This document shows, piece by piece, positions 10,151 through 47,807 of a stretch of 64,000 bases of DNA. The notes below the pieces were generated by a model. That model saw only the letters and a list, made by a program, of their open reading frames with translations, was not told the DNA's origin and ran no database searches. Numbering within the stretch: the stretch's first letter is position 1; each line of letters begins with the position of its first letter. A program made the translations under genes and the position numbers. This DNA is from an uncultured Bdellovibrionales bacterium (GTDB taxonomy: Bacteria > Patescibacteriota > Minisyncoccia > Moranbacterales > UBA1568): the NCBI GenBank assembly GCA_964384235.1, contig CAYLJX010000001.1, positions 86,792 to 150,791 of the forward strand, read 5' to 3'.

Positions 10151-10235
10151 GTATCCCTTTCGGGGTCGGACACGAATCTTGGCATCGGGCGTGATTTCCC
10201 GTATACTGTGAGGAGTCAGCGGTTAACGTTTCCTT

Positions 10236-10850: not shown

Positions 10851-10871
10851 GGACTGAGAATAGGGGATTTT

Positions 10872-10902
10872 TTGACAAAAAAGCCAAAAAGAGTAAGATA
10901 AT
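10872..10902 (+). promoter_or_regulatory. Candidate promoter for the complex-I-like operon (TTGACA ... GATAAT)
   Basis: 'tTTGACAaaaaagccaaaaagagtaaGATAATttt'. The spacer is 19 nt, so this is a weak call. Confidence 0.3.
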
Positions 10903-10968
10903 TTTGTTATAGCGAATATATCGCCAAGGAGGGGGCGGCGATTTTCTGTTGCCGAAATTCCCGGATAT

Positions 10969-11499: not shown

Positions 11500-11513
11500 C
11501 CTCCTTCCTGCAT

Positions 11514-13571: not shown

Positions 13572-13586
13572 TTTTCCCGCATCCGT

Positions 13587-14558: not shown

Positions 14559-14561
14559 TTT

Positions 14562-15218: not shown

Positions 15219-15223
15219 ACCCT

Positions 15224-16678: not shown

Positions 16679-16683
16679 CGGCC

Positions 16684-18279
16684 ATGCCTATGTCTGAAAT
16701 GACGAACACTTCATTGGAACGCTACGGTCTGGGACGGCACCTCTCCGTTCGGAAAGGAAATCTCTCCCTGTTCGACGTGTCGGCGGAGGATCTGCCGGAA
16801 ACGGTGCAGACGCTCATGCACGAGCACAACCTCCCGCTCAAGACCGTCGTAGCGACCGACGAACGCAAAGAGGGAGGAGTCTTCCGTATCCGGTATGTCT
16901 TCGGTCTCCCCAAGCAGGACGGGTTTCTCGTCCCGGTCCTGTCCGTCGATCCGTACGTGCAGAGCTTTCCGTCGCTGGTCTCCGTCGATCAGGAGTTCGC
17001 CGTCTATGAACAGGAGATACAGACCTTCTTCGGACTGGAACCCCTGGGGCATCCGCGTCCCGGTCGCATCCTGCTCCACGGGGAAAACTTTCCTGCGGAC
17101 TGCCATCCGCTTCGGAAGGACTTCGCTTGGAATACGAATGTCGAGGCACCGAAAGAAAAAATCCTTCCGACATTCAGGAAGTTCGAGGGTGAGGGAGTGT
17201 ATGAGATTCCTGTCGGACCGGTCCATGCCGGGATCATCGAGCCGGGACATTTCCGTTTCAGCGTCTTGGGTGAGGAAATCCTCCGTCTCGAGCCGCGTTT
17301 GGGCTACGTGCACAAGGGGACCGAGAAACTATTTGAGACGCTGCCTCTAGATCAGAAGCTCCGGCTTTCGGAGCGTGTTTCCGGTGACAGTTCCTTCCAT
17401 CACGCGCTCGCTTTCGCCCAGGCGATCGAGACGCTTGCGGGAGTCGCGGTGCCGGATCGGGCCAGATTCCTGCGGACGGTGTACGCCGAACTCGAGCGCC
17501 TCGCCAATCATTTCAATGATCTTGCCTTCATCATGCTCGATACCGGTTTCAGCTTCGGTGGCAGTCAGGGGACGCGCCTGCGGGAACGGGTGATGCGGTG
17601 GAACGAGAGGCTGACCGGGAGCCGGTTCCTGCGAGGAGTGGTCGCTTTCGGCGGCGTGACGAAGGATCTCGATGAAAAAATGATCGATGAGCTGCAGGAC
17701 GATCTCGAACTTTTGGAAAAGGATTTCCAGGAAGTGATCGATGCGACCAAGGAGACCGACTCGCTCCTTAACCGACTCAAAGGGACGGGAACGCTCTCAT
17801 CCCAGGTGGCCCGGGATCACGGGGCGGTGGGTATCGCCGCGCGGGCCGTCGGCGAAGAAACGGACGCCCGGGCCGACTATCCCTATGCCGCCTACGAAGA
17901 GGTTCAGTTCAGTGTCCCGACGGAAGAGAGCGGGGACGTCTATGCCAGATATCGGGTGCGTATCCGTGAGGTACACCAGTCCTTCCGTATCCTCAATCAG
18001 GCGCTTACGCTTCTCACTCACCAGCCGGCACCGATCGTCTCGGGATTGCCCAAATTCCCTGCGTCCTCCATGGCGCTCGGGGTCGTCGAGGGATGGCGTG
18101 GAGATATCGTGTATTTTGTGGCGACGGACGCCGAAGGCAACATCTCGCGTGTCAAAGTGCGCGACCCCTCCTTCCTCAACTGGCAGCTTTTCCCGTACGT
18201 CGTGACCAATGACATGGTGCCGGACTTCCCTTTGATCAACAAGAGTTTTAACCTCTCCTATACCGGAAACGACCTCTAG
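16684..18279 (+). CDS. Fused NuoC-NuoD-like / hydrogenase-large-subunit-like protein without NiFe-binding cysteines
   Basis: The N-terminal third is NuoC-like. Then 'VGPVHAGIIEPGHFRFSVLGEEILRLEPRLGYVHKGTEKLFE' resembles NuoD 'GPQHPAAHGVLRL...HRGTEKL'. Positions that hold RxCGxC and DPCxxC in [NiFe] hydrogenases read 'LGYVHKGTEK' and 'DPSFLNWQ'. Confidence 0.75.
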   Translation: MPMSEMTNTSLERYGLGRHLSVRKGNLSLFDVSAEDLPETVQTLMHEHNLPLKTVVATDERKEGGVFRIRYVFGLPKQDGFLVPVLSVDPYVQSFPSLVSVDQEFAVYEQEIQTFFGLEPLGHPRPGRILLHGENFPADCHPLRKDFAWNTNVEAPKEKILPTFRKFEGEGVYEIPVGPVHAGIIEPGHFRFSVLGEEILRLEPRLGYVHKGTEKLFETLPLDQKLRLSERVSGDSSFHHALAFAQAIETLAGVAVPDRARFLRTVYAELERLANHFNDLAFIMLDTGFSFGGSQGTRLRERVMRWNERLTGSRFLRGVVAFGGVTKDLDEKMIDELQDDLELLEKDFQEVIDATKETDSLLNRLKGTGTLSSQVARDHGAVGIAARAVGEETDARADYPYAAYEEVQFSVPTEESGDVYARYRVRIREVHQSFRILNQALTLLTHQPAPIVSGLPKFPASSMALGVVEGWRGDIVYFVATDAEGNISRVKVRDPSFLNWQLFPYVVTNDMVPDFPLINKSFNLSYTGNDL

Positions 18280-22600: not shown

Positions 22601-24232
22601 TTACGCTTCGTTTACAAGCTTTCCTCCCAACGCTTCGAGGGCTTGGGCGATGAAGGAGTCGGAAGAGGAGGGTGTTTCCTTCGTCGAAGCGCTCTCCAGC
22701 ACGACGCGAAGTCTGGTTCGCGATCCCAAAATCGTATCAAAGGCCTTGCCGAGTGTCAATTGGTTGCCTGGTTCCTCAAGGCGCTCCTTGTGGAAGGGAT
22801 ATTTGACGGCGATGGTCACCGTCCCCGCTTCGGTCGAGACGGGTCGGGCGGTGGAGAGGGCGAGCGTGAGCGAGGCGTTCAGTCGTTTGGCGGTGTCGAG
22901 AATAGCCGCCCAGTTGTTCTGGATGGAACTGAGTTCGATGTCGGATTCTTTGGACCCGTTTGTTTTCTCGCTAAGGGACGAATCTGGATCCTGGATTCCC
23001 GCCTCCGCGGGAATGACAGAGGAAGAGGTTTTCTGTTGGTTGTTTTCTGTTGACTGTTCTTTGGTTTCCGTTGCTGTTTTTGTCTCAACTTTTTTTGGTG
23101 CTTCTGGTTTTCTTTCTCCTGCCTCCTGCCTCCTGCCTCCTGCCTCATTCGACAGTATTTTTACCACCGCTATCTCGATCGGTAGCTCCGGAATGACAGC
23201 GGTCTTCACCTGTGTCTGGGCGACCTGGAAGTGTTCGAGCATGCGCACGATCTCGTTCGGGGAAAAGGATTCGGCGAGTTCGGAGAGGTTTGAAACCTGT
23301 TCATCGGTGAGGTGGTCGAGCTCGAGGGGAGCGTGCTTCGGGTGAGCGGAAACCAAGAGGAGCTCGTGGAGGTAGTGGAGGAGTGCGCCGGAAAAGACGG
23401 CGATGTCGACACCATCCTGGGAGAGCTTGCCGATGAAGGAGAGCGCGCCGGAGAGATCGTTTTGCGCGATGAGACGGAGCAGTCCGGAGAGATTAGCCTT
23501 GGTCGTGGTGCCGAGGACTTCTATCACCTTGGCTTCGGTGATAGGGCTTTCCTCGAGGGCGGCGATCTGGGTGAGGAGGGACTCGGCGTCACGCATGCCG
23601 CCTTCGGCCGTGAGCGCGATCATCTCGAGGGCGCCTTTTTCGATTTTGAGTTTTTCTTCTTTGGCGATTTTTTCGAGCTTTCCGACGATCGATTTGACCG
23701 GGAAACGCGAGAGATCGAAGCGCTGACAACGCGAGACGATGGTATCCGGCACTTTGTGGAGCGCGGTGGTGGCGAGGATAAAGATGACGTGAGTGGGTGG
23801 CTCCTCGAGGGTCTTGAGAAGGGCGTTGAAGGCCCCGATGGAGAGCATATGCACCTCGTCGATGATGTAGATCTTGTGAGAGCCGAGGGTGGGCGGGAGC
23901 GCGACGGTCTCGCGGAGTTCGCGGATATTGTCGACACCGGTATGCGAGGCGGCGTCGATCTCGATGACGTCGAGCGAGCGCCCTTCGTTCATGAGGAGGC
24001 AGTGTTCACATTTTCCGCACGGTTCGAAACCGCGCCGGTCGGAGCAGTTGACGGCCTTGGCGAAGAGACGGGCGAGCGTCGTCTTGCCGGTACCGCGCGG
24101 CCCGGTGAAGAGATAGGCCTGGCCGACCCGGCCGAGCTTCAAGGCGTTCTCGAGAGTCGTGACGATGTGTTTCTGTCCGACGACATCGGCGAACGTCTGC
24201 GGACGGTACTTTCTATACAGGGTCGTGCTCAT
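22601..24232 (-). CDS. dnaX: DNA polymerase III subunit gamma/tau
   Basis: 'LYRKYRPQTFADVVGQKHIVTTLENALKLGRVGQAYLFTGPRGTGKTTLARLFAKAVNC', zinc module 'CGKCEHC', 'IYIIDEVHML'. The start is taken at MSTTLY. Confidence 0.9.
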   Translation of the reverse strand: MSTTLYRKYRPQTFADVVGQKHIVTTLENALKLGRVGQAYLFTGPRGTGKTTLARLFAKAVNCSDRRGFEPCGKCEHCLLMNEGRSLDVIEIDAASHTGVDNIRELRETVALPPTLGSHKIYIIDEVHMLSIGAFNALLKTLEEPPTHVIFILATTALHKVPDTIVSRCQRFDLSRFPVKSIVGKLEKIAKEEKLKIEKGALEMIALTAEGGMRDAESLLTQIAALEESPITEAKVIEVLGTTTKANLSGLLRLIAQNDLSGALSFIGKLSQDGVDIAVFSGALLHYLHELLLVSAHPKHAPLELDHLTDEQVSNLSELAESFSPNEIVRMLEHFQVAQTQVKTAVIPELPIEIAVVKILSNEAGGRRQEAGERKPEAPKKVETKTATETKEQSTENNQQKTSSSVIPAEAGIQDPDSSLSEKTNGSKESDIELSSIQNNWAAILDTAKRLNASLTLALSTARPVSTEAGTVTIAVKYPFHKERLEEPGNQLTLGKAFDTILGSRTRLRVVLESASTKETPSSSDSFIAQALEALGGKLVNEA

Positions 24233-24295
24233 AGGGAGTCTTGGAAAAAGAATTTTTTGGAATGTATTCGTATTATATCTTTTTCCGTCCAATAA

Positions 24296-24331
24296 AAAAA
24301 GCCTGTAGAAACAGGCTTTTCTGTTCGTTTT
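24296..24331 (-). terminator. Rho-independent terminator for the minus-strand gtrA-like gene
   Basis: On the minus strand, 'agcctgtttctacaggct' is followed by 'tttttttt'. Confidence 0.55.
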
Positions 24332-24363
24332 TTTACTACCAGCTACAAGCTAATTCCTAACTC

Positions 24364-24966
24364 CTATTTCTTAAACACGAAGAACTTGTACCCGACGAAG
24401 TTCCAGGTGAGGACGAGGATGGAGGCGGTGAGGCCACCGACGTTGGCCCAGACCTTTTCGTCGACGCCGGTCGGGGCACCGATGACGTTCACGACGAGCG
24501 AGGTGATACCGACGTTTAAGAGGAGACCGACCAGGGAGACGACGAGGAACTGCATGAATTCCTCACCGACGTTCTCGGTGTTCTTGTGCTCGAACGACCA
24601 GAACTTGTTCCAGATGTAGCTGTTGATAATGGCGGCAAGCACCGCAAAGCTCTTGAAGACCGAGATGAGGTAGCCGCTCGAGACGTCGCTCATGTAGATG
24701 AAGAGATTGTAGATGCCGAGGTCGATGACGGTGTTGGTCACGCCGACCAGCCCGAATTTGGAAAGCTGGAAGAAAAAACCGCGAACCTTGGAAAGAAGGT
24801 AGCCGAAAGCGACGCCGAGGGCGGCCAGGAGCGCAAGGAGGGGAGCGAAGAACGCAATCGGTACAGGAAGATTTACTGAGAGATTGGAAAAGATGAACGG
24901 AGCAAGGATCCCGATGAACGCCCCGTTGATGGCCGCGAAGATCAGATCACGTACGGTCAATTTCAT
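24364..24966 (-). CDS. GtrA-family polysaccharide-synthesis membrane protein
   Basis: 'QLSKFGLVGVTNTVIDLGIYNLF' is the GtrA signature. Four or five TM helices. Start taken at MKLTVRDL. Confidence 0.65.
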   Translation of the reverse strand: MKLTVRDLIFAAINGAFIGILAPFIFSNLSVNLPVPIAFFAPLLALLAALGVAFGYLLSKVRGFFFQLSKFGLVGVTNTVIDLGIYNLFIYMSDVSSGYLISVFKSFAVLAAIINSYIWNKFWSFEHKNTENVGEEFMQFLVVSLVGLLLNVGITSLVVNVIGAPTGVDEKVWANVGGLTASILVLTWNFVGYKFFVFKK

Positions 24967-24979
24967 ATCCTCTGTTAAG

Positions 24980-25777
24980 TTATTTGTTTTGGTTAATCTC
25001 CTTTTCGATGTCTTCCATATCTCGTACCCACGCGTCGAGCATGGAAGGACTGTCCGAACCCTGCGAGGCGGTCGGTGTTTCGTGAAGGGTGACGGTTTTC
25101 TTTTCCTCTTCCTCCTCCTCTTCGGAGACACCTTTCAGTCCGTGTTTCCACTGGTTGATGCTTTCGTTCTCTTCGGTCGCTTTGGAGAGGGAGGTCTGCC
25201 AGTCCTGGTGGGCGCCCTTCTGGAGGATGTTCTCGATGGCGGACCAGGAAGCCTCGAGGTCGCGGGGAACCACGACGGCCACTTCGTCTCCGGGGACGGC
25301 CTTGAAGTAGGTGATGGACGCGAGGAGGACGCGGTAGGGTTTGCCGTTCGCGACCACGTAGTAGTTGCCTGATTCGTCCTGGGTGACGATGCCGATGGCA
25401 TGTCGGCGCTCGACCGGTCCGATCTGCTTGTAGAGAAAGGTCCCGTCCTGGGTGATGGTGAGCTTGAGCATGTCGCCCTCGACGAGCTTGGACTTGGAAG
25501 CGTAGTTGGCCGGGACGGGATACTGTTTGCCGTCCGTGCCCATCATGATCTGTCCGTCAAAGGTACCTTCGACCACCGTGCCACCGGTCTCGTCGGTTTC
25601 GAACTTGCGCGGGCGACCGGACTTCTTCTTGCCTTCGAGCTGGAGGAGCATGGCCTTGGCGCTCTGGATGGTCTTCTCGGCATTGAGCACCATGTCGCGC
25701 AGCGCCTGGATCTTCTGGGTGCGCTCCGCTTCGTCATGAACTTCGGAATCAGGTTGGGTGTTGTTGTTCGGTGTCAT
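24980..25777 (-). CDS. Hypothetical protein with an N-terminal coiled coil, an AT-hook-like 'SGRPRK', and an acidic C-terminus
   Basis: 265-aa ORF; no family recognised. Confidence 0.45.
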   Translation of the reverse strand: MTPNNNTQPDSEVHDEAERTQKIQALRDMVLNAEKTIQSAKAMLLQLEGKKKSGRPRKFETDETGGTVVEGTFDGQIMMGTDGKQYPVPANYASKSKLVEGDMLKLTITQDGTFLYKQIGPVERRHAIGIVTQDESGNYYVVANGKPYRVLLASITYFKAVPGDEVAVVVPRDLEASWSAIENILQKGAHQDWQTSLSKATEENESINQWKHGLKGVSEEEEEEEKKTVTLHETPTASQGSDSPSMLDAWVRDMEDIEKEINQNK

Positions 25778-26009
25778 AGTTTTGTGCCTTCCAGGGGAGA
25801 ATTTTGTCCCTTTTGTGGAGAGGCGGTTTGGTTTTTGCTTTTGACGATGTAATTATACGTGATTTTTTTTCGACAAGCAAATGTATCACAAACCGCTCCC
25901 TATTTTTGTCAACGATTTCGCATAGTGTAATACGATATACATTTCTTTTTCGGTGCATATCCACATCTTGGTCAAAAACTCTTCTGCGGTTACAGGAAAA
26001 TCGTGACCC

Positions 26010-26039
26010 TTGACAAAATATCGGTTCGTGCGGTAATAT
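26010..26039 (+). promoter_or_regulatory. Sigma70-type promoter (TTGACA - 17/18 bp - TAATAT)
   Basis: 'cTTGACAaaatatcggttcgtgcggTAATATaac' upstream of the 26065 gene. Confidence 0.5.
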
Positions 26040-26064
26040 AACTTGTTGATAAATTCAATATTTT

Positions 26065-27126
26065 ATGGCACCCGCAACCCCGGAATCATCCGAAAACAAG
26101 CACTTTTCATTCATTGAGGCGCTCGAGGTATTCTTGGAGCGTCTGCCGGCACGTTCCCGCACGATCGTGGAGGCCCGTTTCGGTATCGGTGAGGGGAAGG
26201 ATCAGTCAACCCCCAAGACGCTCGAAGAAATCGGTAAAAGCTATGGCATCACGCGCGAGCGGGTACGCCAGGTTATCGGGAGCGCTCTCTCATCCCTTCG
26301 CAAGGAACAGGGACGTCCTGAGGTCAAAGCCGCCGAAGCCTACATCCAATCGACGCTTGAAAAGAAGAGTGGTATCATGGGAGCGGATGCGCTGCTTGAG
26401 ACGCTTGCCTCCGATGAGAGGGAGCGGGGGGCACTCCTCGTCTTTCTCGAATGTCTCTCCGGCGTGCGGTATGAGAAGCCGGCCAAGGACCGCGAGGCCG
26501 CGTATATGACGGAAGGGTTTTCCCTTACGGCGTGGCAGAAGGTCGCGGACACTGCCAAGAAGATCCTGGCGGAGAAAAAGGAATCACTCGACTCCGTGTC
26601 CCTTTTCGGTTCGTTTCGGAAGAGCGGGGGTTCACTCGACGAGACGGCTTTCTTCGACTACCTCTCCGTTTCCAAGGACGTGAAACGAAACGTCTTCGGT
26701 CAGTGGGGACTCTCGGGCTGGAACGACATCAAACCGCGCGGTACCCGGGAAAAGGCCTACCTCGTCCTCAAGACCAAGAAGAAGCCGCTTCACTTCCGCG
26801 AGATCGCCAGGCTCATCGATGAGTACGGCCTGCACGCCCGTACGCGCAAGAGCCATCCGCAGACCGTCCACAACGAGCTCATCAAGGACAAACGGTTCGT
26901 CCTCGTCGGTCGCGGCATCTACGCGCTCGCCGAGTGGGGATACAAGAAGGGCACGGTCAAGGAAGTCGTCGAAGAGATCCTGCGCGGTGCCAAGGAGCCG
27001 ATGTCCCGTGAGACGATTCTCGATCGCGTGCTCAAGGTCCGCAAGGTCAAGAAGTCGACCGTCATCATCAATCTGAACATGTTTTTCTCCCGGGTCGGCA
27101 AAGACACATATACTATCAGGAAGTAA
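26065..27126 (+). CDS. Sigma-70 region-4-like HTH followed by a HARE-HTH winged-helix domain; putative transcription regulator
   Basis: 'TLEEIGKSYGITRERVRQV' is a sigma70 region 4.2 HTH. The C-terminal 'HFREIARLIDEYGL...HPQTVHNELIKDKRFVLVGRGIYALAEWGY' resembles the HARE-HTH of RNAP delta / RpoE-N. Confidence 0.55.
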   Translation: MAPATPESSENKHFSFIEALEVFLERLPARSRTIVEARFGIGEGKDQSTPKTLEEIGKSYGITRERVRQVIGSALSSLRKEQGRPEVKAAEAYIQSTLEKKSGIMGADALLETLASDERERGALLVFLECLSGVRYEKPAKDREAAYMTEGFSLTAWQKVADTAKKILAEKKESLDSVSLFGSFRKSGGSLDETAFFDYLSVSKDVKRNVFGQWGLSGWNDIKPRGTREKAYLVLKTKKKPLHFREIARLIDEYGLHARTRKSHPQTVHNELIKDKRFVLVGRGIYALAEWGYKKGTVKEVVEEILRGAKEPMSRETILDRVLKVRKVKKSTVIINLNMFFSRVGKDTYTIRK

Positions 27127-27178
27127 CGGGCATTGTTCGGAAAGGGGGTCAAAATACAAAAAATCTTTCAGAAGAAAT

Positions 27179-28474
27179 ATGTTCTCAGGTCTCCTGGACA
27201 TTTTTGCGAAGATGGGAACGATTCTCTCGGCCGTACTGGATGTCTGGTTTCTCATCTTTCCTCCCTTGCTGTATTTTCTTTTCAAGACGCTCTGGATGCA
27301 GTACGTCTGGGGCAAGTATGCCTCGACCCTCAAGTGGGTGATGCTCGAGATCATCCCGCCGCGCGACATAGAGAAGGGGCCGCTCCCGATGGAGTCGATT
27401 TTCGCGGGGCTCGCCGGTGTCGTCAAGAGTTCCAATACCGCCGAAGAGATGATCAAGGGTGAGTTCCCGACATCCTTCAGTCTCGAGATCGTGAGCATGG
27501 AGGGGAAGGTGCGGTTCTTCGTCCGGACGCAGTCCGGTTTCCGCAACCTGGTGGAGGCGCAGTTCTACGCCCACTATCCCGACATCGAGATCGTCGAGGT
27601 ACCGGATTACGTCTTCGATGTTCCCAAGACCGTTCCCAACAAGGAGTGGGACCTTTGGGGCGCGGACCTCGTACTGGTCAAGGATGACCTCTATCCCATC
27701 CGGACGTACAAATATTTCGAGGAATCGGTCACCGGCAAGATGGTCGATCCGCTCGCGAGCGTCCTCGAGACCATGGGCAAGGCCGGCCCGGGTCAGTTCA
27801 TGTGGCTGCAGATGATCACTACGCCCTTCAGTGAGAAGTGGTACAAGACCGGCCAGGTGACCGTCGACGAGTTTCTCGGCAAGGTCAAGGAGAAGCCGGT
27901 CGGTGTCCTCACGCGCCTCCTGCAGGAAATCTGGGATATCATCGGGAATATCGGAAAAGGCATCATGGGCAAGGAAATCGAGTTCACGGCCGGGGCGACC
28001 GCGGAGAAGAAAGAGGAGCAGCCGGTGGAATTCCGTCTCACGCCGGGCGAGAAAGACGTCCTCAAGGCCCTCCAGTCCAATCTTGCCAAGCAGCAGTTCC
28101 GGATGCGCATGCGCTACGTCTATGTGGCCCGCCGCGACGTGTTCAGCAAGCCGTTCGGTGTCTCCGGTTTCTTCGGCGCGCTCAAGCAGTTCAACGACCA
28201 GAACCTCAACAGCTTCAAACCCGAGGACGGCTCCAAGACGGATGCCAAGTATCTCTGGGTCGAAGAGCGCATGCGGTACCGCCAGCGTCGTATCTTCCGT
28301 CGGTACATCACCCGCGACACCGATCCGCAGAGTACCCGCTTTCTCCTGAGTTCGGAGGAGCTCGCCACGATCTTTCATATGCCGGATATGTCGGTGGTCG
28401 CTCCGACCATGGCCCGTGTCATGGCCAAGCGTGGCGGAGCGCCTGCCAATCTCCCGGTTCAAGACTTTGAGTAG
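27179..28474 (+). CDS. Hypothetical membrane-anchored protein (2 N-terminal TM helices plus a large soluble domain), partner of the downstream ATPase
   Basis: 431 aa; hydrophobic segments 'ILSAVLDVWFLIFPPLLYFLF'. No family recognised. A short gap of ~40 nt separates it from the next gene. Confidence 0.5.
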   Translation: MFSGLLDIFAKMGTILSAVLDVWFLIFPPLLYFLFKTLWMQYVWGKYASTLKWVMLEIIPPRDIEKGPLPMESIFAGLAGVVKSSNTAEEMIKGEFPTSFSLEIVSMEGKVRFFVRTQSGFRNLVEAQFYAHYPDIEIVEVPDYVFDVPKTVPNKEWDLWGADLVLVKDDLYPIRTYKYFEESVTGKMVDPLASVLETMGKAGPGQFMWLQMITTPFSEKWYKTGQVTVDEFLGKVKEKPVGVLTRLLQEIWDIIGNIGKGIMGKEIEFTAGATAEKKEEQPVEFRLTPGEKDVLKALQSNLAKQQFRMRMRYVYVARRDVFSKPFGVSGFFGALKQFNDQNLNSFKPEDGSKTDAKYLWVEERMRYRQRRIFRRYITRDTDPQSTRFLLSSEELATIFHMPDMSVVAPTMARVMAKRGGAPANLPVQDFE

Positions 28475-28514
28475 GATATTTGCGGAGTTTCTCGATATTC
28501 AATACCATTAAGGT

Positions 28515-30542
28515 ATGACTACCCAGTCCGATATCACATTTTTCGCCAAGACGAACTTCCGCAATCAGGAGCGGACGTTCGGTATCAAGACCGACGACCG
28601 ACGACGTCATATGTACGTCATCGGCAAGACCGGCATGGGCAAGACCAACCTCCTGGAGAACCTGGCCATCCAGGATATACAGAAGGGACACGGCATCGCC
28701 TTCATCGATCCGCACGGTGACACCGCGGAAAAGCTCATACGGGCGATTCCCGCGAGCCGCATCAACGACGTCATCTATTTCAATCCGGCCGACCAGGACT
28801 TTCCGATCGCCTTCAACGTGATGGAGAAGGTGAGTCCCGAGTACCGCCACCTGGTCGCTTCGGGTCTCGTCGGTGTCTTCAAGAAGCTCTGGGCTGACTC
28901 GTGGGGTCCGCGGCTCGAATACATTCTCCGAAACGCCATCATCGCGCTCCTCGAATACCCGGGTTCGACCCTTCTCGGCGTGACACGCATCCTCGTCGAT
29001 AAGTCCTACCGTGACCGCGTCGTGGAAAAGATCTCCGATCCGGTGGTGCGCTCCTTCTGGGTGGACGAGTTTTCCAAGTGGGACCCGCGCGTCCTTCAGG
29101 AAGTCATCTCGCCGATCCAGAACAAGGTCGGTCAGTTCCTCTCGAGCGCTCTCATCCGCAACATCGTCGGTCAGACGGTGTCGTCCTTCGACGTGCGCAC
29201 GATCATGGACGAGCGCAAGATCCTCATCATGAACCTCTCCAAGGGCCGCATCGGTGAGGACAACAGCGCACTCCTTGGCGCCATGATGATCACCAAGATC
29301 CAGCTCGCAGCCATGGGGCGTGTCGATATGCCGGAGGAGGAACGCAAGGACTTTTACCTCTATGTCGACGAGTTCCAGAACTTCGCGACGGAATCCTTCG
29401 CCAATATCCTCTCCGAGGCCCGCAAGTACCGCCTCAACCTCGTGCTCGCCAACCAGTACATCACGCAGATCGACGAGAAAGTGCGCGATGCCATCTTTGG
29501 AAACGCCGGGACACTCGTATCGTTCCGCGTGGGCGCCATGGACGCCGAAGCGCTCGAGAAGGAGTTCGAGCCGGTCTTCATGATGAACGATATCGTCAAT
29601 CTGCCGAAGTATCAGATCTACCTCAAGCTCATGATCGACGGTATCGCGGGGGACGCCTTCAGTGCGACGACTTTGCCGCCCATCGCGCTCCAGGATGGGG
29701 GTAACGAGGAAAAGATCATCCGGATTTCCCGCGAGCGCTATGCGACATCCAAGGCGGATGTGGAAGAAAAGATCCGCCGCTGGAGCGGCATGCTCACGCC
29801 GGAGGAAAAAGCGGCGCTCATCGAGACGGTGCAGAGTCCTCGTCCGAGACAGGAGGCACCCAGAAGGATGTCCGAAGAAAGTTTCCGGTCACCTCGTCCC
29901 GAGAGGAAAAACGCACCGCAGACTCCGATGACTCCTCGACCTCAGGCTGCTCCGAAGACCGTGCCGGTCGAAAAGCCTCAGGCGGAAGAGCGTGTCGAAA
30001 CAGGTACCCCGAAAGTTCAGCCGGAAGAACCGGCTCGTCCTGAACCAATTGAAGAAAAAACCGTTTCTCAGGAGACCGAGGAAAGAGTCGAAGAGATTTC
30101 CGGACAGGAGACTCATACGCGACCGCTCCCGGAAGAAGGGAAGCAGGAAGAACGACCGATGTACGCGGCGGTCTGCGCTTCCTGCGGGACCGAGATCGAG
30201 GTGCCGTTCAGGCCCGATGGCAAGCGCCCGACCTTCTGCAAGGACTGCCTGCGGGATTACCAGCGCGCCACTGCCAAGGTTCGTCGCGAGGTCGAAACCA
30301 AGCAGGCACCGGTCTCGCAACCTTCTGTCCAGCGATCATCACAACCGACCGATGTTCCTCCTCGTCCCCGCAAACAGGTGGTGAGGAGTACCTACGTGTC
30401 CGATCAGTCTCCCATCTCGCTTTCCCAGGTACAGCACATCGAGCCCAAGAAATTCAAAGCGCTCAAGAAGCGCCCCAGTGTCAATCTTGACGAGATTCGC
30501 GCGCTCCTCGACGATGCGAAGAAGAAGAACGATGCCGAATGA
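28515..30542 (+). CDS. VirD4/TraD/TrwB-like (type IV coupling protein) or HerA/FtsK-fold P-loop ATPase with a C-terminal CxxC...CxxC zinc ribbon
   Basis: Walker A 'VIGKTGMGKTN', 'IAFIDPHGD', 'IYFNP', 'LYVDEFQNFA', 'EARKYRLNLVLANQYITQID', 'GNAGTLVSFRVG'. Then a long linker and 'CASCGTEIEVPFRPDGKRPTFCKDC'. Confidence 0.65.
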   Translation: MTTQSDITFFAKTNFRNQERTFGIKTDDRRRHMYVIGKTGMGKTNLLENLAIQDIQKGHGIAFIDPHGDTAEKLIRAIPASRINDVIYFNPADQDFPIAFNVMEKVSPEYRHLVASGLVGVFKKLWADSWGPRLEYILRNAIIALLEYPGSTLLGVTRILVDKSYRDRVVEKISDPVVRSFWVDEFSKWDPRVLQEVISPIQNKVGQFLSSALIRNIVGQTVSSFDVRTIMDERKILIMNLSKGRIGEDNSALLGAMMITKIQLAAMGRVDMPEEERKDFYLYVDEFQNFATESFANILSEARKYRLNLVLANQYITQIDEKVRDAIFGNAGTLVSFRVGAMDAEALEKEFEPVFMMNDIVNLPKYQIYLKLMIDGIAGDAFSATTLPPIALQDGGNEEKIIRISRERYATSKADVEEKIRRWSGMLTPEEKAALIETVQSPRPRQEAPRRMSEESFRSPRPERKNAPQTPMTPRPQAAPKTVPVEKPQAEERVETGTPKVQPEEPARPEPIEEKTVSQETEERVEEISGQETHTRPLPEEGKQEERPMYAAVCASCGTEIEVPFRPDGKRPTFCKDCLRDYQRATAKVRREVETKQAPVSQPSVQRSSQPTDVPPRPRKQVVRSTYVSDQSPISLSQVQHIEPKKFKALKKRPSVNLDEIRALLDDAKKKNDAE

Positions 30543-30558
30543 CGGCAGGGTAAAAATC

Positions 30559-30568
30559 TGATACACTG
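30559..30568 (+). promoter_or_regulatory. Extended -10 promoter (TGaTACACT). The predicted start site is about at the ATG, giving a leaderless mRNA.
   Basis: The 14-mer 'tctgatacactgaa' is identical to the one at 56907-56920. TACACT is also the -10 of the rplJ promoter. Confidence 0.4.
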
Positions 30569-30574
30569 AACATC

Positions 30575-30685
30575 ATGAGTTTCAAGAAATGGCACAAACG
30601 AGCGTACGCCTTCTGGGTGGTGATTTCCGTTCTGGTAGCGATCTCGATGGTCGCGTTCCTGTTCGCGCCGTTCTTCATGTATTAG
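30575..30685 (+). CDS. Putative 36-aa single-TM small protein (MSFKKWHKRAYAFWVVISVLVAISMVAFLFAPFFMY)
   Basis: ATG 7 nt after the extended -10, with a hydrophobic core. It is under 60 aa, so it is absent from the ORF track. Confidence 0.3.
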   Translation: MSFKKWHKRAYAFWVVISVLVAISMVAFLFAPFFMY

Positions 30686-30692
30686 CGCCCAT

Positions 30693-31115
30693 ATGACTGG
30701 AGGCAAGCTTCTTGTCCGGGGAGTGATCGGAGGAGTGATCGTCCTGGTCGCCTGGGTGGCCTATGCTTCCTCCAAACAGATCGAACGGAACAAGGGTATC
30801 GAGAAGGAAGTGGCCGCGCTCCAGGCCGAAGCCGACAAGATCCGCCGGGAAAACGAGACCCTTTCCGAAAAGATCAGTTATTTTTCCTCATCGTCCTTTC
30901 AGGAACAGGAAGCCAAGAAGAAGCTCGGACTGCGGAAAGCCGATGAAAACGTCGCCGTGATACAGCCCCGGACAGTCGTGGAAGAAGAAAAGAACGAGGA
31001 ACAAACGACCATGGCCGGAGCCTCGTCTGCCGGCACGAGAGACCGGGACCATCTGCCGAATTACCGGAAGTGGTGGGAGAGATTTTTTTCGAATGAACAA
31101 GGAAAAGATATATGA
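30693..31115 (+). CDS. FtsB/DivIC/FtsL-family septum formation initiator
   Basis: N-terminal TM followed by the coiled coil 'KEVAALQAEADKIRRENETLSEKI', the typical architecture. Confidence 0.55.
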   Translation: MTGGKLLVRGVIGGVIVLVAWVAYASSKQIERNKGIEKEVAALQAEADKIRRENETLSEKISYFSSSSFQEQEAKKKLGLRKADENVAVIQPRTVVEEEKNEEQTTMAGASSAGTRDRDHLPNYRKWWERFFSNEQGKDI

Positions 31116-32161
31116 CGGAAACAGCGAAACAAGGAGCGAGGCGGATCAAATGGGGAACGATCGGACTCCTGGGACTTGTCGTCATCGGGGTGCTGTTCAT
31201 CGCGACCCTGGTCATGGTGTACGCGCTGCCGCGGTCGCAGGCTGAGAGCGTCGTGAACCGGTTCCCATACCCTGTCGCGGTCATCGGGTATCGTGAGGCT
31301 GTCACCCATCGGACACTCTCTGCCAATCTCGCGTCGGTCAGGAGTTTTTATGAGAATCAGGATTTTTCCAAGATCGGCATGCGTGTCGATTTCACCACCG
31401 AGGAAGGACAGAAGCGTCTCAAGGTGCGCGAGAAGGAGGTCCTCAACAAGATGATCGAGGACAAGGCGATCATGCTCCTCGCCAAGGAGCGAGGTATCCG
31501 GGTGAGCGACGAGAGCGTCCGTGAGGGGCTCCGGCGCAAGCTCGAAGAGTACGGCAGCGGGGAAGAAGTGAAAAAGAGCCTGGCTCGTCTGTATGGCTGG
31601 ACACTCTCCGATTTCGAGGAAAAAGTGGTCCTGCCGAGTCTCTACGAGGAAAAACTCCGCGAAAGTTTTCTCAAAGAAACTGACAATTCCAAGGCTGAAG
31701 ACAAGATCCGTTCCGCCCAGGAAGCGCTTCGTGGCGGCATGACGTTCGAGGATGTAGCGAAAAAATATTCAGAGGGAAAAACGGCCGATGAGGGAGGGGA
31801 ACTCGGATGGTATCGTCTCGGCGATCTGACACCCGAACTCCAGAAAGCCGTCGCGGCGCAGAAGAGTGGTGTGGCGGGGGATGTCGTGGAAAGCGACCTC
31901 GGTTTCCATATCGTCCTCGTCGAGGAGGTCAAGAAAGAGCAGGACACGTCGCTCTACCGACTGCGCCAGATTTTCATGAAGAAAACGATGTTCGCGGATT
32001 GGCTCTCGGAAAAGATGCGGCAGGTGTCCATCTTCATCCTTTCGCCCGAATACCGCTGGAATGCCGACGAGGCCCGGGCGGAATTCCGTGACAAACAGAT
32101 GATCGAATTCGAAAAGGAACTTTTCGAGAAAGCTCAGGGCGACGCGTCCTTTTTCTTCTAA
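31112..32161 (+). CDS. PpiC-type (parvulin) peptidyl-prolyl isomerase, PrsA/SurA-like, membrane-anchored
   Basis: N-terminal TM; parvulin domain 'GMTFEDVAKKYSEGKTADEGGELGWYRLGDLTPELQKAV...GFHIVLVEEV'. Confidence 0.75.
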   Translation: MTETAKQGARRIKWGTIGLLGLVVIGVLFIATLVMVYALPRSQAESVVNRFPYPVAVIGYREAVTHRTLSANLASVRSFYENQDFSKIGMRVDFTTEEGQKRLKVREKEVLNKMIEDKAIMLLAKERGIRVSDESVREGLRRKLEEYGSGEEVKKSLARLYGWTLSDFEEKVVLPSLYEEKLRESFLKETDNSKAEDKIRSAQEALRGGMTFEDVAKKYSEGKTADEGGELGWYRLGDLTPELQKAVAAQKSGVAGDVVESDLGFHIVLVEEVKKEQDTSLYRLRQIFMKKTMFADWLSEKMRQVSIFILSPEYRWNADEARAEFRDKQMIEFEKELFEKAQGDASFFF

Positions 32162-32212
32162 GCGTCGTATCTGTAGAAGGAGCTGATCATGGAGTTTTCT
32201 TTCTTCTTTTCC

Positions 32213-32393
32213 CTTCGAACGGAAGGCAAAGATTCCTTTTCGGAGTCTTGAAGATCCGAAAGCGGGCATGGTTCCGACTGACAAGGAGGAGAGTGAAGGA
32301 GCTTCAGGAGTGAGGGTGCACGCCTGCCCGCAGTGCTACAGCGTTGCAGGCGGGCCGGGCAACCGAGCGACTCCGAAAAGGGAGACTTTGCCT
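32213..32393 (+). repeat. MITE-like structured repeat, copy 1 (~180 bp; terminal inverted repeats TTTCGGAGTC / GACTCCGAAA)
   Basis: About 85% identical to the reverse complement of 44742-44898. Differs by a 25-30 bp internal indel ('ctgcccgcagtgctacagcgttgcaggcgg'). Confidence 0.6.
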
Positions 32394-32441
32394 GAAGAGA
32401 GTTGTACTAAAACGGGTAATCACTCTTAAAGTATCAATATC

Positions 32442-33728
32442 ATGGAAACACTTGAACCGATGCCGACAACCTCGCAAGAGACACCGAAACAGGAAAAGCG
32501 GATTTCCCGGGGACAGTACTTCGGGATGGTCGCGATCGCCCTCGTTTTCGGGTTCCTCGGAGGACTGATCGCACCCCGTCTTTCAGGGCTGTCCGATTTT
32601 CCCTTTCAACCCAAGAAAAAACAGGAAGTGAGACAGGAGACCGGGACGACTATCACGCCGCCCGTCTCGCTGGTGGCCGAGGATGATGCCGTCGTGAACG
32701 TCGTCGAGAAGAACTCGCCAGCCGTGGTGAGTATCGTCATCACCAAGGACGTGCCGCAGGTGCGCCGGTTCTTCAATACTCCCTTCGGCAACGGCTTCCC
32801 GTTCTTCAGTGATCCCTTTCAGAACGAGGATACTCAGGGAAACGGCAGGGGAGAGACACAGAAGCGGCAGGTCGGTTCCGGTTCAGGCTTCTTCGTTTCT
32901 TCCGACGGTCTCGTTGTGACCAACAAGCACGTGGCCTCCGACACCCAGGCCGATTACACGGTCATCACCACCGACGGCAAGGAATACCCGGCCAAGGTGC
33001 TCGCCCGCGATCCCAACAATGACATCGCCGTGCTCAAGGTGGAGGGCAAAGATTTCCCGGCACTCTCACTCGGTGATTCCGACGTGGTGAGGGTCGGTCA
33101 GACCGCCATCGTCATCGGTAACCCCTTGGGTGAGTTTGCCAACTCCGTTTCGCGCGGCATCATCTCGGGACTCAAGCGCAGTGTCACGGCCGGATCCGGC
33201 TTCGGCGATGAGGAGAAGCTCACCGGTATCATCCAGACGGACGCGGCCATCAATCCCGGCAACTCCGGCGGCCCGCTCCTCAACATTTCCGGGCAGGTCA
33301 TCGGCGTGAACGTCGCCATGGCACAGGGCGCGGAGAACATCGGTTTCGCTCTCCCTATCAATCAGGTCAAGCGCATCGTCGAACAGGTCCGCACCACCGG
33401 CAAGATCACCACGCCGTACATCGGTGTCCGCTATGTCCTCCTCAATGACGAGATCCAGAAGGAAAACAATCTCCCATACAACTACGGTGCGCTGGTGCTT
33501 CGTGGGCAGAATATGACGGACTTCGCGGTCATCCCGGGCTCGCCGGCCGACAAGGCGGGCATCGTCGAGAACGACGTCATCCTCGAGATCGGCGGCACCA
33601 AGGTGGACGAGGAACACCCCCTCGGCAACCTCATCGCCGAGCACAACGTCGGCGACGAGATCACGCTCAAACTCTGGCACAAAGGCGACACGAAGGACGT
33701 CAAAGTGAAACTAGAGGAGAGAAAGTGA
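32442..33728 (+). CDS. HtrA/DegP-family serine protease (S1C) with a PDZ domain, membrane-anchored
   Basis: 'GSGFFVSSDGLVVTNKHV' (His), 'DIAVLKV' (Asp), 'TDAAINPGNSGGPLLN' (Ser), and a C-terminal PDZ 'GSPADKAGIVENDVILEIGG'. Confidence 0.85.
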   Translation: METLEPMPTTSQETPKQEKRISRGQYFGMVAIALVFGFLGGLIAPRLSGLSDFPFQPKKKQEVRQETGTTITPPVSLVAEDDAVVNVVEKNSPAVVSIVITKDVPQVRRFFNTPFGNGFPFFSDPFQNEDTQGNGRGETQKRQVGSGSGFFVSSDGLVVTNKHVASDTQADYTVITTDGKEYPAKVLARDPNNDIAVLKVEGKDFPALSLGDSDVVRVGQTAIVIGNPLGEFANSVSRGIISGLKRSVTAGSGFGDEEKLTGIIQTDAAINPGNSGGPLLNISGQVIGVNVAMAQGAENIGFALPINQVKRIVEQVRTTGKITTPYIGVRYVLLNDEIQKENNLPYNYGALVLRGQNMTDFAVIPGSPADKAGIVENDVILEIGGTKVDEEHPLGNLIAEHNVGDEITLKLWHKGDTKDVKVKLEERK

Positions 33729-34463: not shown

Positions 34464-37115
<2,652 letters not shown>

Positions 37116-37240: not shown

Positions 37241-37996
37241 ATGGTCTTCCATTTCACGATATTTTTCTGGAGCGTCGTTTTCTTTCTCGGATTGGAAACG
37301 GTCACCCTGCGGCCGGTCTCCCTTTCGTGGAGCTGGTACCTTTTTTCCGTCTTACCGCTCCTCGTCATTTCCCTCATGGCGAGCCGCCGCCTCACCAAAC
37401 GGTATGCCGACGGATTCATCCCGATGCTTCTTTCACTCTCGGCACCGACGCTTCTGTCACTCATCGATCACCCTACGCAGAGGCAGGTTTTCGTTTTTCT
37501 CGGAGCGCTCATGTACTATTTCGCGCTTCTCGGCATCTACCGGTTGCGTCACAATCCGACGGATCGGACAGGACAATCATTTCTCAACGCCGCCGCCATG
37601 GCCGGCATGCTTTTCTTCTATACCGGCATGTACGGTTTCTTTCTCAACTTCAACTTTCCACTCTGGGGACTGATGGCACTCTACGCGGTCGGCACCATGC
37701 TCACGAGCTATGAGACGTTCATCGGACGAGAAAAGAAGGAACGACACCGCGTGCTCACATACAGCCTGCTCCTGGGACTCATCATGGGGGAGCTCGTCTG
37801 GGTGATAAGTTTCTGGCCGTTCGGATATCTGACGACCGGGACGATCGCGCTCATCCTTTTCTTTCTCGTATGGGACATCGCGTTCGACGCCTTTCGGCAG
37901 TCTCTCTCGCTCAAGAGAGCGCTGTTCCGGATCGGCTTTTTCCTTGGACTGACCCTTCTGCTCTTTTTGAGTTCTCCGTGGAGAATCCTTGTCTGA
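37241..37996 (+). CDS. Hypothetical polytopic membrane protein (start uncertain)
   Basis: About 7 TM helices; no family recognised. Confidence 0.45.
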   Translation: MVFHFTIFFWSVVFFLGLETVTLRPVSLSWSWYLFSVLPLLVISLMASRRLTKRYADGFIPMLLSLSAPTLLSLIDHPTQRQVFVFLGALMYYFALLGIYRLRHNPTDRTGQSFLNAAAMAGMLFFYTGMYGFFLNFNFPLWGLMALYAVGTMLTSYETFIGREKKERHRVLTYSLLLGLIMGELVWVISFWPFGYLTTGTIALILFFLVWDIAFDAFRQSLSLKRALFRIGFFLGLTLLLFLSSPWRILV

Positions 37997-38024
37997 AGAA
38001 GGAAAACGTGATACAAAAGGAATA

Positions 38025-39197
38025 ATGTTTTCCTCTATGTTTCTCAAAAAATGCCTCAAATACGGGCTCATTGCGATAGCTGTTTTCGTTTTGGGTGGGA
38101 TCGGCGGAGTGACCTTTGAACGCTACGCCGTACCGCGTCTGGCGGGCATACCGGAGCTTTCGCAGATGCGTTTCTTCAAGAAGGCGACCGAGAATGTCAC
38201 CATCATCAACAAGACCGAGCAGGTCGTCATCCGCGAGGATGATTCGGTGGAACGGATCGTGTCCCAGCCAGCGACGGCCGTCGTCAATATCGTGACGGAA
38301 AAGAGCGTGACGCCGGCAGCTTCGACCGCTGTCAGGCAGGAGGGCAACACCGAGACCGGCGTCCTCCTTACCAACGACGGGCTCATCGTGACCTATCACC
38401 AGTCCGCGCCGACCGATGCGACACTTCGTTACTCGGTGCTTCTCTTCGACGGTACCAGTCACAAGGCCGAGTATGTCGGTCGTGATCCGCTTACCAATCT
38501 CGCCTTCTTTCGGCTCCTTGACGGAGTGAACGCGCCGGCCATCGCGCTCGCTAATTCCGATGACGCGCGTACCGGCAGGAAACTCATCGCCATCGGCAAT
38601 GCGGCTGGCGAGTACCAGAACCGCCTCTTCGTCGGCATCCTCGAGAATATCGACCGGACATTCAACCTTTCCGGCAAGACGGTGGCCTCGTCGGAGAAGT
38701 GGGAGGGTGTCTTCGATATGAACCTGGACAACCCAGAGGATTTCGTCGGCGGTCCGGCTATCGGTTTCAACGGTGAGATGGTCGGGTTGGTGGGGGAGAT
38801 GGATCTCGATACTGCCAAGCGGTCCTTTCTCATCCCGTCCAATGTCGTCCGTGCCTCTATGGATAGAGTGATCGGCGGTAAGCTCGAGACGCGTCCGGTC
38901 CTCGGGGTGTACTACCGCTCCATCACCAAGGCGTATGCGCTCTCGCAGGGGTTGTCCCGCGACCGGGGCGCGCTCGTCTATTCACCTTCCGGCAAGACGG
39001 GACTCGCGGTCATCGCGGGGTCACCGGCTGATCGGGCCGGACTCCAGTACGGTGATATCGTCATAGCGGTGAACGGTGCCGAGATCAATCTCGACAATCC
39101 GCTCGCGCGTGCCCTGAGCCGTTTCGAGAAGGGTGACACTATGGAACTGACCGTGCTTCGAAACGGGGAAGAAAAGAAAATAACCGTACAACTCTGA
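38025..39197 (+). CDS. HtrA-like pseudo-protease with a PDZ domain and a degenerate catalytic triad (alternative start at 37989)
   Basis: Trypsin fold is recognisable ('VLLTNDGLIVTYHQ', 'LIAIGNAAGE', 'GFNGEMVGLV'). The Ser box reads 'DFVGGP' instead of GNSGGP, and the Asp position reads 'NLAFFRL'. C-terminal PDZ 'GSPADRAGLQYGDIVIAVNG'. RBS 'aaaaggaataATG'. Confidence 0.65.
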   Translation: MFSSMFLKKCLKYGLIAIAVFVLGGIGGVTFERYAVPRLAGIPELSQMRFFKKATENVTIINKTEQVVIREDDSVERIVSQPATAVVNIVTEKSVTPAASTAVRQEGNTETGVLLTNDGLIVTYHQSAPTDATLRYSVLLFDGTSHKAEYVGRDPLTNLAFFRLLDGVNAPAIALANSDDARTGRKLIAIGNAAGEYQNRLFVGILENIDRTFNLSGKTVASSEKWEGVFDMNLDNPEDFVGGPAIGFNGEMVGLVGEMDLDTAKRSFLIPSNVVRASMDRVIGGKLETRPVLGVYYRSITKAYALSQGLSRDRGALVYSPSGKTGLAVIAGSPADRAGLQYGDIVIAVNGAEINLDNPLARALSRFEKGDTMELTVLRNGEEKKITVQL

Positions 39198-47730: not shown

Positions 47731-47807
47731 AGAATCCGTTTGCTCTGGTGGTGAATCTTGTCTACAATGGAGGTGAAAGCCGGCCGGTTGGTCGGTGGTT
47801 TGTCTAT

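Follow-up and report, generated by a model that had tools for sequence, protein, structure and literature searches.

The 64,000-nt stretch of DNA analysed here (the window; contig CAYLJX010000001.1, positions 86,792–150,791) comes from the chromosome of a member of the Moranbacteria, a taxon within the Parcubacteria group of Patescibacteria (candidate phyla radiation, CPR), and carries a block of three genes that ends in a conjugation-type ATPase. The block consists of three co-directional open reading frames (ORFs) on the + strand, separated by gaps of 52 and 40 nt: a 353-amino-acid (aa) protein with Sigma70_r4 and HARE-HTH (helix-turn-helix) domains (26065–27126), a 431-aa protein of the family DUF8128 (PF26449; 27179–28474) and a 675-aa soluble P-loop ATPase of the type IV coupling protein (T4CP) kind (28515–30542). 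The same gene boundaries were called on a public contig of 9 kb (L177) whose sequence is identical over this stretch. Because the gaps are this short and no convincing terminator was found in either of them, the three genes probably share a single transcript. The likely start of this operon is a sigma-70-like promoter candidate, TTGACA-18-TAATAT (26010–26039, +), a consensus match only, found at 10 of 12 positions in a consensus scan, which ends 25 nt before the first gene. An Rfam scan of 24000–32500 returned no RNA family. An earlier reading of the DNA, made without database searches (the sequence-only reading), had picked out the 431-aa and 675-aa ORFs; both are present as it described them, as are all the ATPase motifs that it quoted.

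The motor core of the ATPase spans aa 25–433 (nt 28587–29813). A motif check located Walker A, GKTGMGKT (aa 37–44, nt 28623–28646), FIDPHGD (aa 63–69), FNP (aa 89–91), Walker B, FYLYVDEF (aa 280–287, nt 29352–29375) and the block ARKYRLNLVLANQYITQ (aa 302–318, nt 29418–29468). The N terminus of the ATPase (FFAKTNFR...) is invariant. The T4CP-like identity that had been read from these motifs holds in comparisons with families and profiles. The protein passes the Pfam models TrwB_AAD_bind (38.7 bits against a cutoff of 20.5) and TraG-D_C (27.2 bits against 22), its only relatives among PDB sequences, by single sequence or by profile, are TrwB (2e-7) and DotL (2e-5), and hhalign aligns the core with aa 118–482 of TrwB over 316 columns at 96.4% probability (E 1.2e-9). 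Against TrwK/VirB4, hhalign found 24 columns at the P-loop only, at 4% probability, and the VirB4 model TIGR00929 gave 18.2 bits against a cutoff of 643. Judged by these comparisons, the CPR motor is clearly closer to VirD4/TrwB than to VirB4. The NCBIfam T4CP equivalogs were all below cutoff, with 53.3 of 366 bits for SXT_TraD, 38.6 of 647 for TOL TraD and 34.9 of 250 for VirD4 CD1115.

The ATPase does not classify as a housekeeping FtsK or HerA with a known partner. It has no FtsK_SpoIIIE family match in Pfam or NCBIfam, and its likeness to HerA is limited to the P-loop, where Pfam DUF87 is passed over aa 30–71 only; against the NCBIfam HerA equivalog it scores far below cutoff. A tblastn search with the Escherichia coli FtsK motor returned nothing at E ≤ 1e-6 in the window or in 168 related CPR loci (about 1.7 Mb, loci only). 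The protein contains no hydrophobic segment in its 675 aa by hydropathy, and the ORF cannot be extended in the 5′ direction, as the first start codon after the preceding stop is already used; the sequence-only reading, too, had noted the absence of an N-terminal transmembrane anchor. An AlphaFold 2 (AF2) model of the core, of low confidence (pLDDT 46, 24 close homologues), has helices at aa 108–217, and the TrwB profile alignments span the stretch between Walker A and Walker B.

The motor is joined to its C-terminal modules by a low-complexity linker rich in Glu, Pro and Arg (aa 437–546, nt 29823–30152; 24, 19 and 12 of 110 residues, respectively). At about 110 aa it is shorter than the ~170 aa first estimated, and it forms a variable region of the alignment, differing in length and sequence among orthologues. 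Most Moranbacteria orthologues have an F-x-P-P-L-A-P-K-R/K motif in the linker (alignment columns about 625–650), which the window ATPase does not have. The linker leads into a CxxC-x17-CxxC treble-clef zinc finger (aa 547–580, nt 30153–30254) with its cysteines at aa 554–578 (CASC-x17-CKDC, nt 30174–30248). This finger passes Pfam zf_Tbcl_2 (PF23477; 1.7e-12, 47.3 bits against 27) and NCBIfam TIGR04272, the CxxC-x17-CxxC family (1.6e-13, 50.1 bits against 36); its four cysteines are invariant in 27 orthologues, and small archaeal proteins that carry a CxxC-x17-CxxC domain bind zinc (PMC12704099). The sequence-only reading had a zinc ribbon closing the protein: the finger is there, but it is not terminal, being followed by a tail of about 97 aa (aa 581–675, nt 30255–30539). 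Within the tail, alignment revealed a conserved basic terminal motif, ISLSQVQHIEPKKFKALKKRPSVNLDEIRALL (aa 634–665, nt 30414–30509), of which the pattern SL.Q.QHI.PKKFK.L..RP.VNL.EVRALI is kept across Moranbacteria orthologues and the sequence around it is not. We regard this motif as a candidate docking peptide.

The upstream partner had been called a novel protein with two transmembrane helices, and neither description is supported. A precomputed hit assigns the identical 431-aa protein of the public contig to PF26449 at E ≤ 1e-5, all 120 homologues listed for it carry the same family, and an exhaustive HMMER search places 1,862 representatives of 50%-identity clusters in DUF8128 at E ≤ 1e-3. 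The protein gave no match in a Pfam set without PF26449, in NCBIfam or in PADLOC. It has one hydrophobic stretch by hydropathy (aa 8–36, nt 27200–27286), which contains an internal PP and which AlphaFold models as a single long helix; most members of the family share a single N-terminal hydrophobic stretch of this kind. Conserved elements near the C terminus include the motif SSEELATIFHMPDMSV (nt 28349–28396, +) and an invariant APxNLP tail (nt 28433–28456, +). Between the anchor and the tail, a predicted cytoplasmic domain (about aa 50–410) resembles the N-terminal domain of VirB4 in fold. In a Foldseek search of the PDB with the AF2 model (pLDDT 70, pTM 0.64), the seven best matches were all TrwK chains (E 1e-4 to 6e-4), and in BFVD the model matched phage G gp156 at 1e-16 and the VirB4-like gp155 of the same phage at 3.6e-7. 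Sequence comparisons were silent on this point: hhalign found no significant similarity between DUF8128 and TrwK, TrwM, TrsD, TrsE or phage G gp155, and the DUF8128 profile matched no solved structure among PDB sequences.

The first gene encodes the neighbouring regulator-like protein of the sequence-only reading, and both of its domain assignments pass their Pfam cutoffs: sigma-70 region 4 at aa 24–80 (nt 26134–26304; Sigma70_r4, 7.8e-14, 51.4 bits against 24.1) and HARE-HTH at aa 229–291 (nt 26749–26937; 6.1e-14, 52.6 bits against 25.9), with a probable second HARE-like stretch. The protein also passes the NCBIfam model of the N-domain of the RNA polymerase (RNAP) delta subunit, TIGR04567, at 44.1 bits against 42. 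Its best PDB matches are to region 4 of SigA/RpoD only, and no sigma region 2 was found in it by Pfam, NCBIfam and PDB searches. We rejected two identities. Sigma-factor models align at their C-terminal end only and score far below cutoff, so the protein is not a sigma-70 factor. The delta subunit of RNAP is a small stand-alone protein in which an N-terminal HARE-HTH domain precedes an acidic C-terminal tail; here, HARE-HTH lies inside a larger protein that has a basic C terminus and no acidic tail. The sigma region 4 part resembles MzaA of the MZA defence system. The putative role of the 353-aa protein in the module is that of an adaptor or regulator that binds DNA or RNAP. No literature was found on a combination of HARE-HTH and sigma domains in CPR bacteria.

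Phage proteins tie the membrane partner to the ATPase. The two window proteins match successive parts of one phage protein family, phrog_5156 (824 positions): the partner (aa 55–405) covers positions 30–357 at 2.3e-11 and the ATPase (aa 26–432) positions 407–817 at 8.9e-61. In phage G gp156, hhalign places the DUF8128 profile on aa 15–321 (98%, E 2.4e-13) and the ATPase core on aa 376–782 (E 4e-35), and TP-84 gp48 and the SP8 protein align with both profiles in the same way. These fused proteins are single polypeptides of 750–910 aa, and their domain order is collinear with the Patescibacterial gene order; because both proteins match the halves of phrog_5156 in that order, the Patescibacterial pair is a split form of one protein. 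The 54 residues of gp156 that remain unaligned are about as long as the last 17 residues of the partner plus the first 29 of the ATPase, which places the split in the inter-domain linker. The DUF8128-like domain of gp156 starts at about residue 8 and leaves no room for an N-terminal anchor, and Pfam found no zinc-finger families in phage G gp156, TP-84 gp48, the SP8 protein or 0105phi7-2 gp32. Identity between phage and CPR proteins is 16–30%. By tblastn, the ATPase core was found in 38 phage records, mostly of Bacillus (phage G, SPO1-like) and Geobacillus (TP-84, GBK2) phages; the partner found nothing in phage genomes by this method, so that profiles and structure were needed for its phage link.

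The phage homologues stand in DNA-transfer or DNA-partition contexts. In phage G (497 kb; L087, 798–6362), a TrbL/VirB6-like gp153, the small gp154 and the VirB4-like gp155 precede the fusion gp156, which is followed by an HNH endonuclease gene. In SP8, an SPO1-like phage (L092, 2774–3793 and 7460–8284), an Alp7A-type actin-like gene lies about 1 kb 5′ of the fusion and a Replic_Relax gene directly 3′ of it, and in 0105phi7-2 ParA/RepA genes lie downstream of the fusion gp32. Small VirB2/TrbC-pilin-like genes occur directly 5′ of the fusion in TP-84 (gp47; L088, 4514–4894) and 0105phi7-2 (gp30; L093, 2935–3288), with weak matches of 5.8e-5 and 2.7e-3, respectively. As a separate observation, a pilin-like gene followed by the fused ATPase mimics the VirB2–VirB4 order of type IV secretion system (T4SS) operons. 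The annotators of 0105phi7-2 reported an HHpred match of the C-terminal part of gp32 to the C-terminal domain of TrwK. With the phage C-terminal part likened to TrwK and the CPR motor TrwB-like, the family as a whole lies between VirB4 and VirD4.

The pair is conserved well beyond the window. Both partner and ATPase have hundreds of homologues at 50–77% identity, so that chance does not explain the finding. Across 80 species-representative Moranbacteria loci, the ATPase gene lies directly 3′ of DUF8128 in all 80 and the HTH gene directly 5′ in 79. At greater distance, the ATPase is adjacent in six of seven distinct CPR loci with gene tables, and the HTH gene lies upstream in five of the seven. 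A sample of 80 diverse metagenome loci, 33–64% identical to a distant DUF8128 family member, gave the ATPase 3′ of DUF8128 in 46 of the 62 loci with room for it and the HTH gene 5′ in at least 34 of 65, a count limited by divergence. The co-occurrence on which the earlier proposal of a coupling ATPase with a membrane adaptor depended is thus observed (80/80 and 46/62). In phages the two are one polypeptide, and this fusion is strong evidence that partner and ATPase work together as motor and membrane adaptor. The two form a conserved unit in most, not all, lineages. In about a quarter of the diverse CPR loci (among them L083, 7001–9426; L106; L109; L110) the Sigma70_r4/HARE-HTH gene is kept 5′ of DUF8128 and the ATPase does not follow it. 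The link between HTH gene and DUF8128 is partly independent of the ATPase, and in some lineages the tie of DUF8128 to the HTH gene persists no less than its tie to the ATPase. The gene that follows DUF8128 in L083 encodes BacA instead.

Sequence conservation within the operon is asymmetric across CPR lineages: the ATPase core keeps 55–85% identity, DUF8128 and the HTH protein about 33–36%. The core is 55–71% identical in Kuenenbacteria-type and other Parcubacteria-type loci, and 63–85% identical to the closest of three CPR queries in the 80 diverse metagenome loci. Conservation of the outer flanks extends to only about half of the Moranbacteria loci; DivIC, directly 3′ of the ATPase in the window, holds that position in 40 of the 80. 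Distant CPR loci have differing housekeeping surroundings (SecDF, Mur ligases, penicillin-binding protein (PBP), DUF1361 with a glycosyltransferase, DivIC), and no T4SS genes or relaxases stand beside the pair in the annotated neighbourhoods of distant homologues. Two features of these surroundings are recorded here for themselves. In three distant loci (L084, 10692–12940; L090, 9512–11766; L091, 6851–9103) the ATPase gene precedes the same two genes, one for a DUF1361 protein and one for a Glyco_trans_2_3 glycosyltransferase; this is a second neighbourhood that recurs, in addition to DivIC and SecDF. In two others (L081, 2327–4375; L089, 1–1878), SecD has an inserted PpiC-type rotamase, in the order SecD_1st, Rotamase, SecDF_P1_head, SecD_SecF_C.

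With type IV coupling proteins (TrwB of R388, VirD4, TraD, DotL), the window ATPase shares the Walker A and Walker B blocks and the overall motor profile. Coupling proteins carry an N-terminal transmembrane domain in the same polypeptide, whereas here the anchor is a separate DUF8128 protein. The ATPase further differs from them in its C-terminal zinc finger, in being encoded by a chromosomal, vertically conserved gene and in having no relaxase or mating-pair genes nearby. A C-terminal extension able to bind an adaptor recalls TraD. VirB4 ATPases share an N-domain-like fold with the DUF8128 model, whereas the ATPase domain of the window is T4CP-like instead. The plasmid pSK41 offers a precedent for a split VirB4: trsD, resembling the VirB4 N-domain, is followed by trsE, the VirB4 ATPase. 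VirB4 proteins, including TrsD and TrsE of pSK41/pGO1, are encoded with VirB3, VirB6 or VirB2, whereas the DUF8128/ATPase pair is not; Pfam scans found no VirB3, VirB6 or VirB2-type families in the window. The phrog_5156 phage proteins are homologues of both window proteins in the same N-to-C order, but fused. The layout is also analogous to that of FtsK/SpoIIIE, which belong to the same ATPase superfamily as coupling-protein-type ATPases and combine an anchor, a low-complexity linker, a ring motor and a DNA-reading winged-helix module, except that anchor and DNA-binding module are separate proteins in the window. The likeness to EccE–EccC of type VII secretion is much weaker than that to VirB4, and neither other ESX components nor EccC-type multi-domain ATPases are present. 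We also rejected a HerA/NurA system (DUF87 match at the P-loop only, and no NurA found near the ATPase) and Ced DNA import (NCBIfam CedB and CedD matches at the P-loop only, far below cutoff).

On balance, and with modest confidence, we think that the three-gene operon builds a two-piece, membrane-tethered nucleic-acid translocation motor of the VirD4/TrwB/TraD kind. In T4SS structures, the N-terminal domain of VirB4 docks the ATPase motor on the inner-membrane platform. The DUF8128 protein would be held in the cytoplasmic membrane by its one N-terminal hydrophobic segment, exposing the VirB4-N-terminal-domain-like domain to the cytoplasm. The 675-aa ATPase would be a soluble TrwB-like ring, presumably hexameric, bound in a physical complex to the anchor that DUF8128 supplies in trans. 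The zinc finger borne by the linker, the basic C-terminal peptide and the Sigma70_r4/HARE-HTH protein would most likely choose a nucleic-acid substrate and pass it on, a preference that we draw from the type of these accessory modules, as zinc finger, sigma region 4 and HARE-HTH are all of a nucleic-acid type. ATP hydrolysis would then thread the substrate, most likely DNA but possibly RNA, through the ring at the membrane, in a direction that could be import or export, and the substrate may enter another channel or the Patescibacterial T4SS, whose genes lie elsewhere on the chromosome.

Several points weigh against this proposal. No T4SS channel, relaxase or competence gene was found in the window or in the ~1.7 Mb of related loci as examined, and DUF8128 occurs without an ATPase downstream in about a quarter of the diverse loci. 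The link of DUF8128 to the VirB4 N-terminal domain has no sequence-level support and comes from a model of moderate confidence (pLDDT 70), and the poor model of the ATPase (pLDDT 46) gave no structural check of the ring or of an all-alpha domain. The HTH protein might do no more than regulate, and both the substrate of the motor and the channel that it would feed are presumed. In S. epibionticum, a T4CP homologue, which may or may not be an orthologue of the window ATPase, is non-essential for epibiotic growth (PMC12102498).

The alternative that we take most seriously, although we think it doubtful, is an ordinary coupling protein of the Patescibacterial T4SS that recruits protein effectors for the host, with DUF8128 plugging into the inner-membrane complex of the T4SS and the HTH protein only regulating. 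The T4CP-type signatures of the ATPase fit this as well, a VirB4-N-terminal-domain-like partner could dock on the platform of VirB4, and the phage G fusion adjoins VirB4- and VirB6-like genes. In Patescibacteria, moreover, coupling protein genes often stand apart from virB4, and the T4SS is without relaxases and appears to be specialised for non-conjugative roles (PMC12102498). However, T4CP homologues occur in 2,918 of 3,035 genomes and VirB4 in only 2,417 (PMC12102498), so that many carriers would have no machine to serve; a zinc finger and two modules of HTH type are signs of a nucleic-acid substrate; and the tight, deep linkage of the HTH gene to DUF8128, even without an adjacent ATPase, exceeds what a mere regulator would lead one to expect. 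An improbable second alternative, a chromosome-handling translocase that acts at division or segregation as FtsK/SpoIIIE do, with the HTH protein supplying sequence-reading winged-helix modules, draws on the parallel architecture (anchor, low-complexity linker, motor and DNA-binding module), on the housekeeping-level conservation of the core (55–85% identity across CPR) and on recurrent division and envelope neighbours (DivIC, Mur ligases, PBP, SecDF); yet the ATPase has no FtsK_SpoIIIE match, its relatives are conjugation-type ATPases, and the variable flanks make the link to division genes a loose one.

Two further alternatives are less probable again. The 353-aa protein might recruit the ATPase, at the membrane, to RNAP that is transcribing or has stalled, where the motor would serve to recycle RNAP or to handle RNA co-transcriptionally. 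Its Sigma70_r4 domain is like region 4 of primary sigma factors, its HARE-HTH scores above the RNAP delta cutoff and no neighbour of DUF8128 is more persistent than its gene. We nevertheless consider this reading quite unlikely: both modules also count as ordinary HTH domains that bind DNA, the protein has neither sigma region 2 nor the acidic delta-type tail, the phage homologues sit beside DNA-transfer and partition genes and not transcription genes, and a T4CP-type ATPase that acts on RNAP would, as far as we know, be without precedent. Mobile-element cargo, an anti-phage module with a MADS/HerA-like ATPase or a domesticated prophage remnant is the least probable of all and, in our view, very improbable. 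Matches of the ATPase to the PADLOC mad8 model of the MADS system (8e-17) and, weakly, to HerA models, the occurrence of both proteins in a phage family and the MzaA-like sigma region 4 would suit it, but synteny is vertical and near-universal, covering 80 of 80 species in one lineage and further CPR classes, housekeeping genes (DnaX, DivIC, PpiC, HtrA, ClpB) flank the block, and the very high conservation of the ATPase is unlike that of defence genes. Its occurrence in essentially every member of the lineage, at a fixed place in the chromosome, refutes this reading. We rejected both named defence systems, MADS (an eight-gene mad1–mad8 operon that includes a methyltransferase), of which the mad8-like match is the only one, and MZA, as the other genes of either system are absent from the neighbourhood. 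A prophage or integrative element was likewise rejected, given vertical synteny, housekeeping flanks and a GC content of the block equal to that of its flanks; no integrase, repeats or tRNA border was seen around it.

That Patescibacteria have an orphan T4CP-type ATPase was known before. A survey published in 2025 reported VirD4-type T4CP homologues from about 96% of Patescibacterial genomes, 5,713 genes in all, of which only 148 lie near virB4; VirB4 itself occurs in fewer genomes than the T4CP homologues do (PMC12102498). The same survey found relaxases to be rare, described the T4SS as apparently specialised for non-conjugative roles, noted TrsD-like genes adjoining virB4 and raised exaptation for the T4CP homologues (PMC12102498). 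What appears to be new is the VirB4-N-domain fold of the partner, the fusion seen in phages and the linkage to the HTH gene, and the partnership with DUF8128 was likewise found in no description; no paper mentioning PF26449/DUF8128 was found.

Patescibacteria make up a very large share of bacterial diversity, have tiny genomes and depend on hosts, including for nucleotides. The two-piece translocation motor proposed here would turn an orphan 'T4CP homologue' into a testable three-component machine with named parts (membrane partner, zinc finger and HTH protein), and it names specific genes with which to ask how these bacteria move DNA or RNA across the membrane. The mechanism of nucleic-acid uptake in Patescibacteria was stated to be unresolved in a 2026 preprint (10.64898/2026.06.21.733656). 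As a rather speculative extension, which we hold to be unlikely, the DUF8128/ATPase pair and its HTH partner might be a Patescibacteria-wide motor for uptake or processing of host-derived DNA or RNA; if so, the pair would be the missing energy source of nucleic-acid scavenging by nucleotide-auxotrophic epibionts. The locus also bears on the kinship of the VirB4 and VirD4 ATPase families, as the combination of a VirB4-type N-domain with a VirD4-type motor could, equally speculatively, be a surviving intermediate between the two.

The remainder of the window agrees with a chromosomal setting. Pfam matches indicate housekeeping functions, among them RNase HII (PF01351), RNase III, an SMC-type ATPase and a DnaX-type DNA polymerase III gamma/tau, and further DivIC, a PpiC-type rotamase, a class II aminoacyl-tRNA synthetase, LytB, glycosyltransferases and a complex-I/Mrp-like module. 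As the sequence-only reading had noted, no VirB, Tra, Com or relaxase genes lie nearby: Pfam scans of the other large ORFs in the 64-kb window gave no match to T4SS, Tra, Com/competence or relaxase families.

Some other features of the window may be of separate interest. Divergent from the operon, a 265-aa protein (24980–25777, −) without Pfam or NCBIfam match is present in 45 of the 80 Moranbacteria loci at 55–84% identity; the ORF as called and the long ORF called for a GtrA-like gene (24364–25131) overlap. The window, 64 kb from a small genome, has two ClpB-type AAA+ chaperone genes (34464–37115 and 47748–50264) and two HtrA-type trypsin/PDZ protease genes (32442–33728 and 37989–39197). A 605-aa Phe/Leu-rich polytopic membrane protein (45913–47730, −), without Pfam match, has a pyrimidine-rich coding strand that accounts for a spike of GC skew and AT skew at 46–48 kb. 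Finally, a run on the + strand (8063–18279) matches Na_H_Exchanger, VTT, Oxidored_q6 (NuoB-like), two Proton_antipo_M proteins, NADHdh (NuoH-like) and a fused 30-kDa/49-kDa complex-I subunit in Pfam; it resembles an Mrp/membrane-bound-hydrogenase-type module, which is unusual, since Patescibacteria are usually described as being without respiratory complexes.

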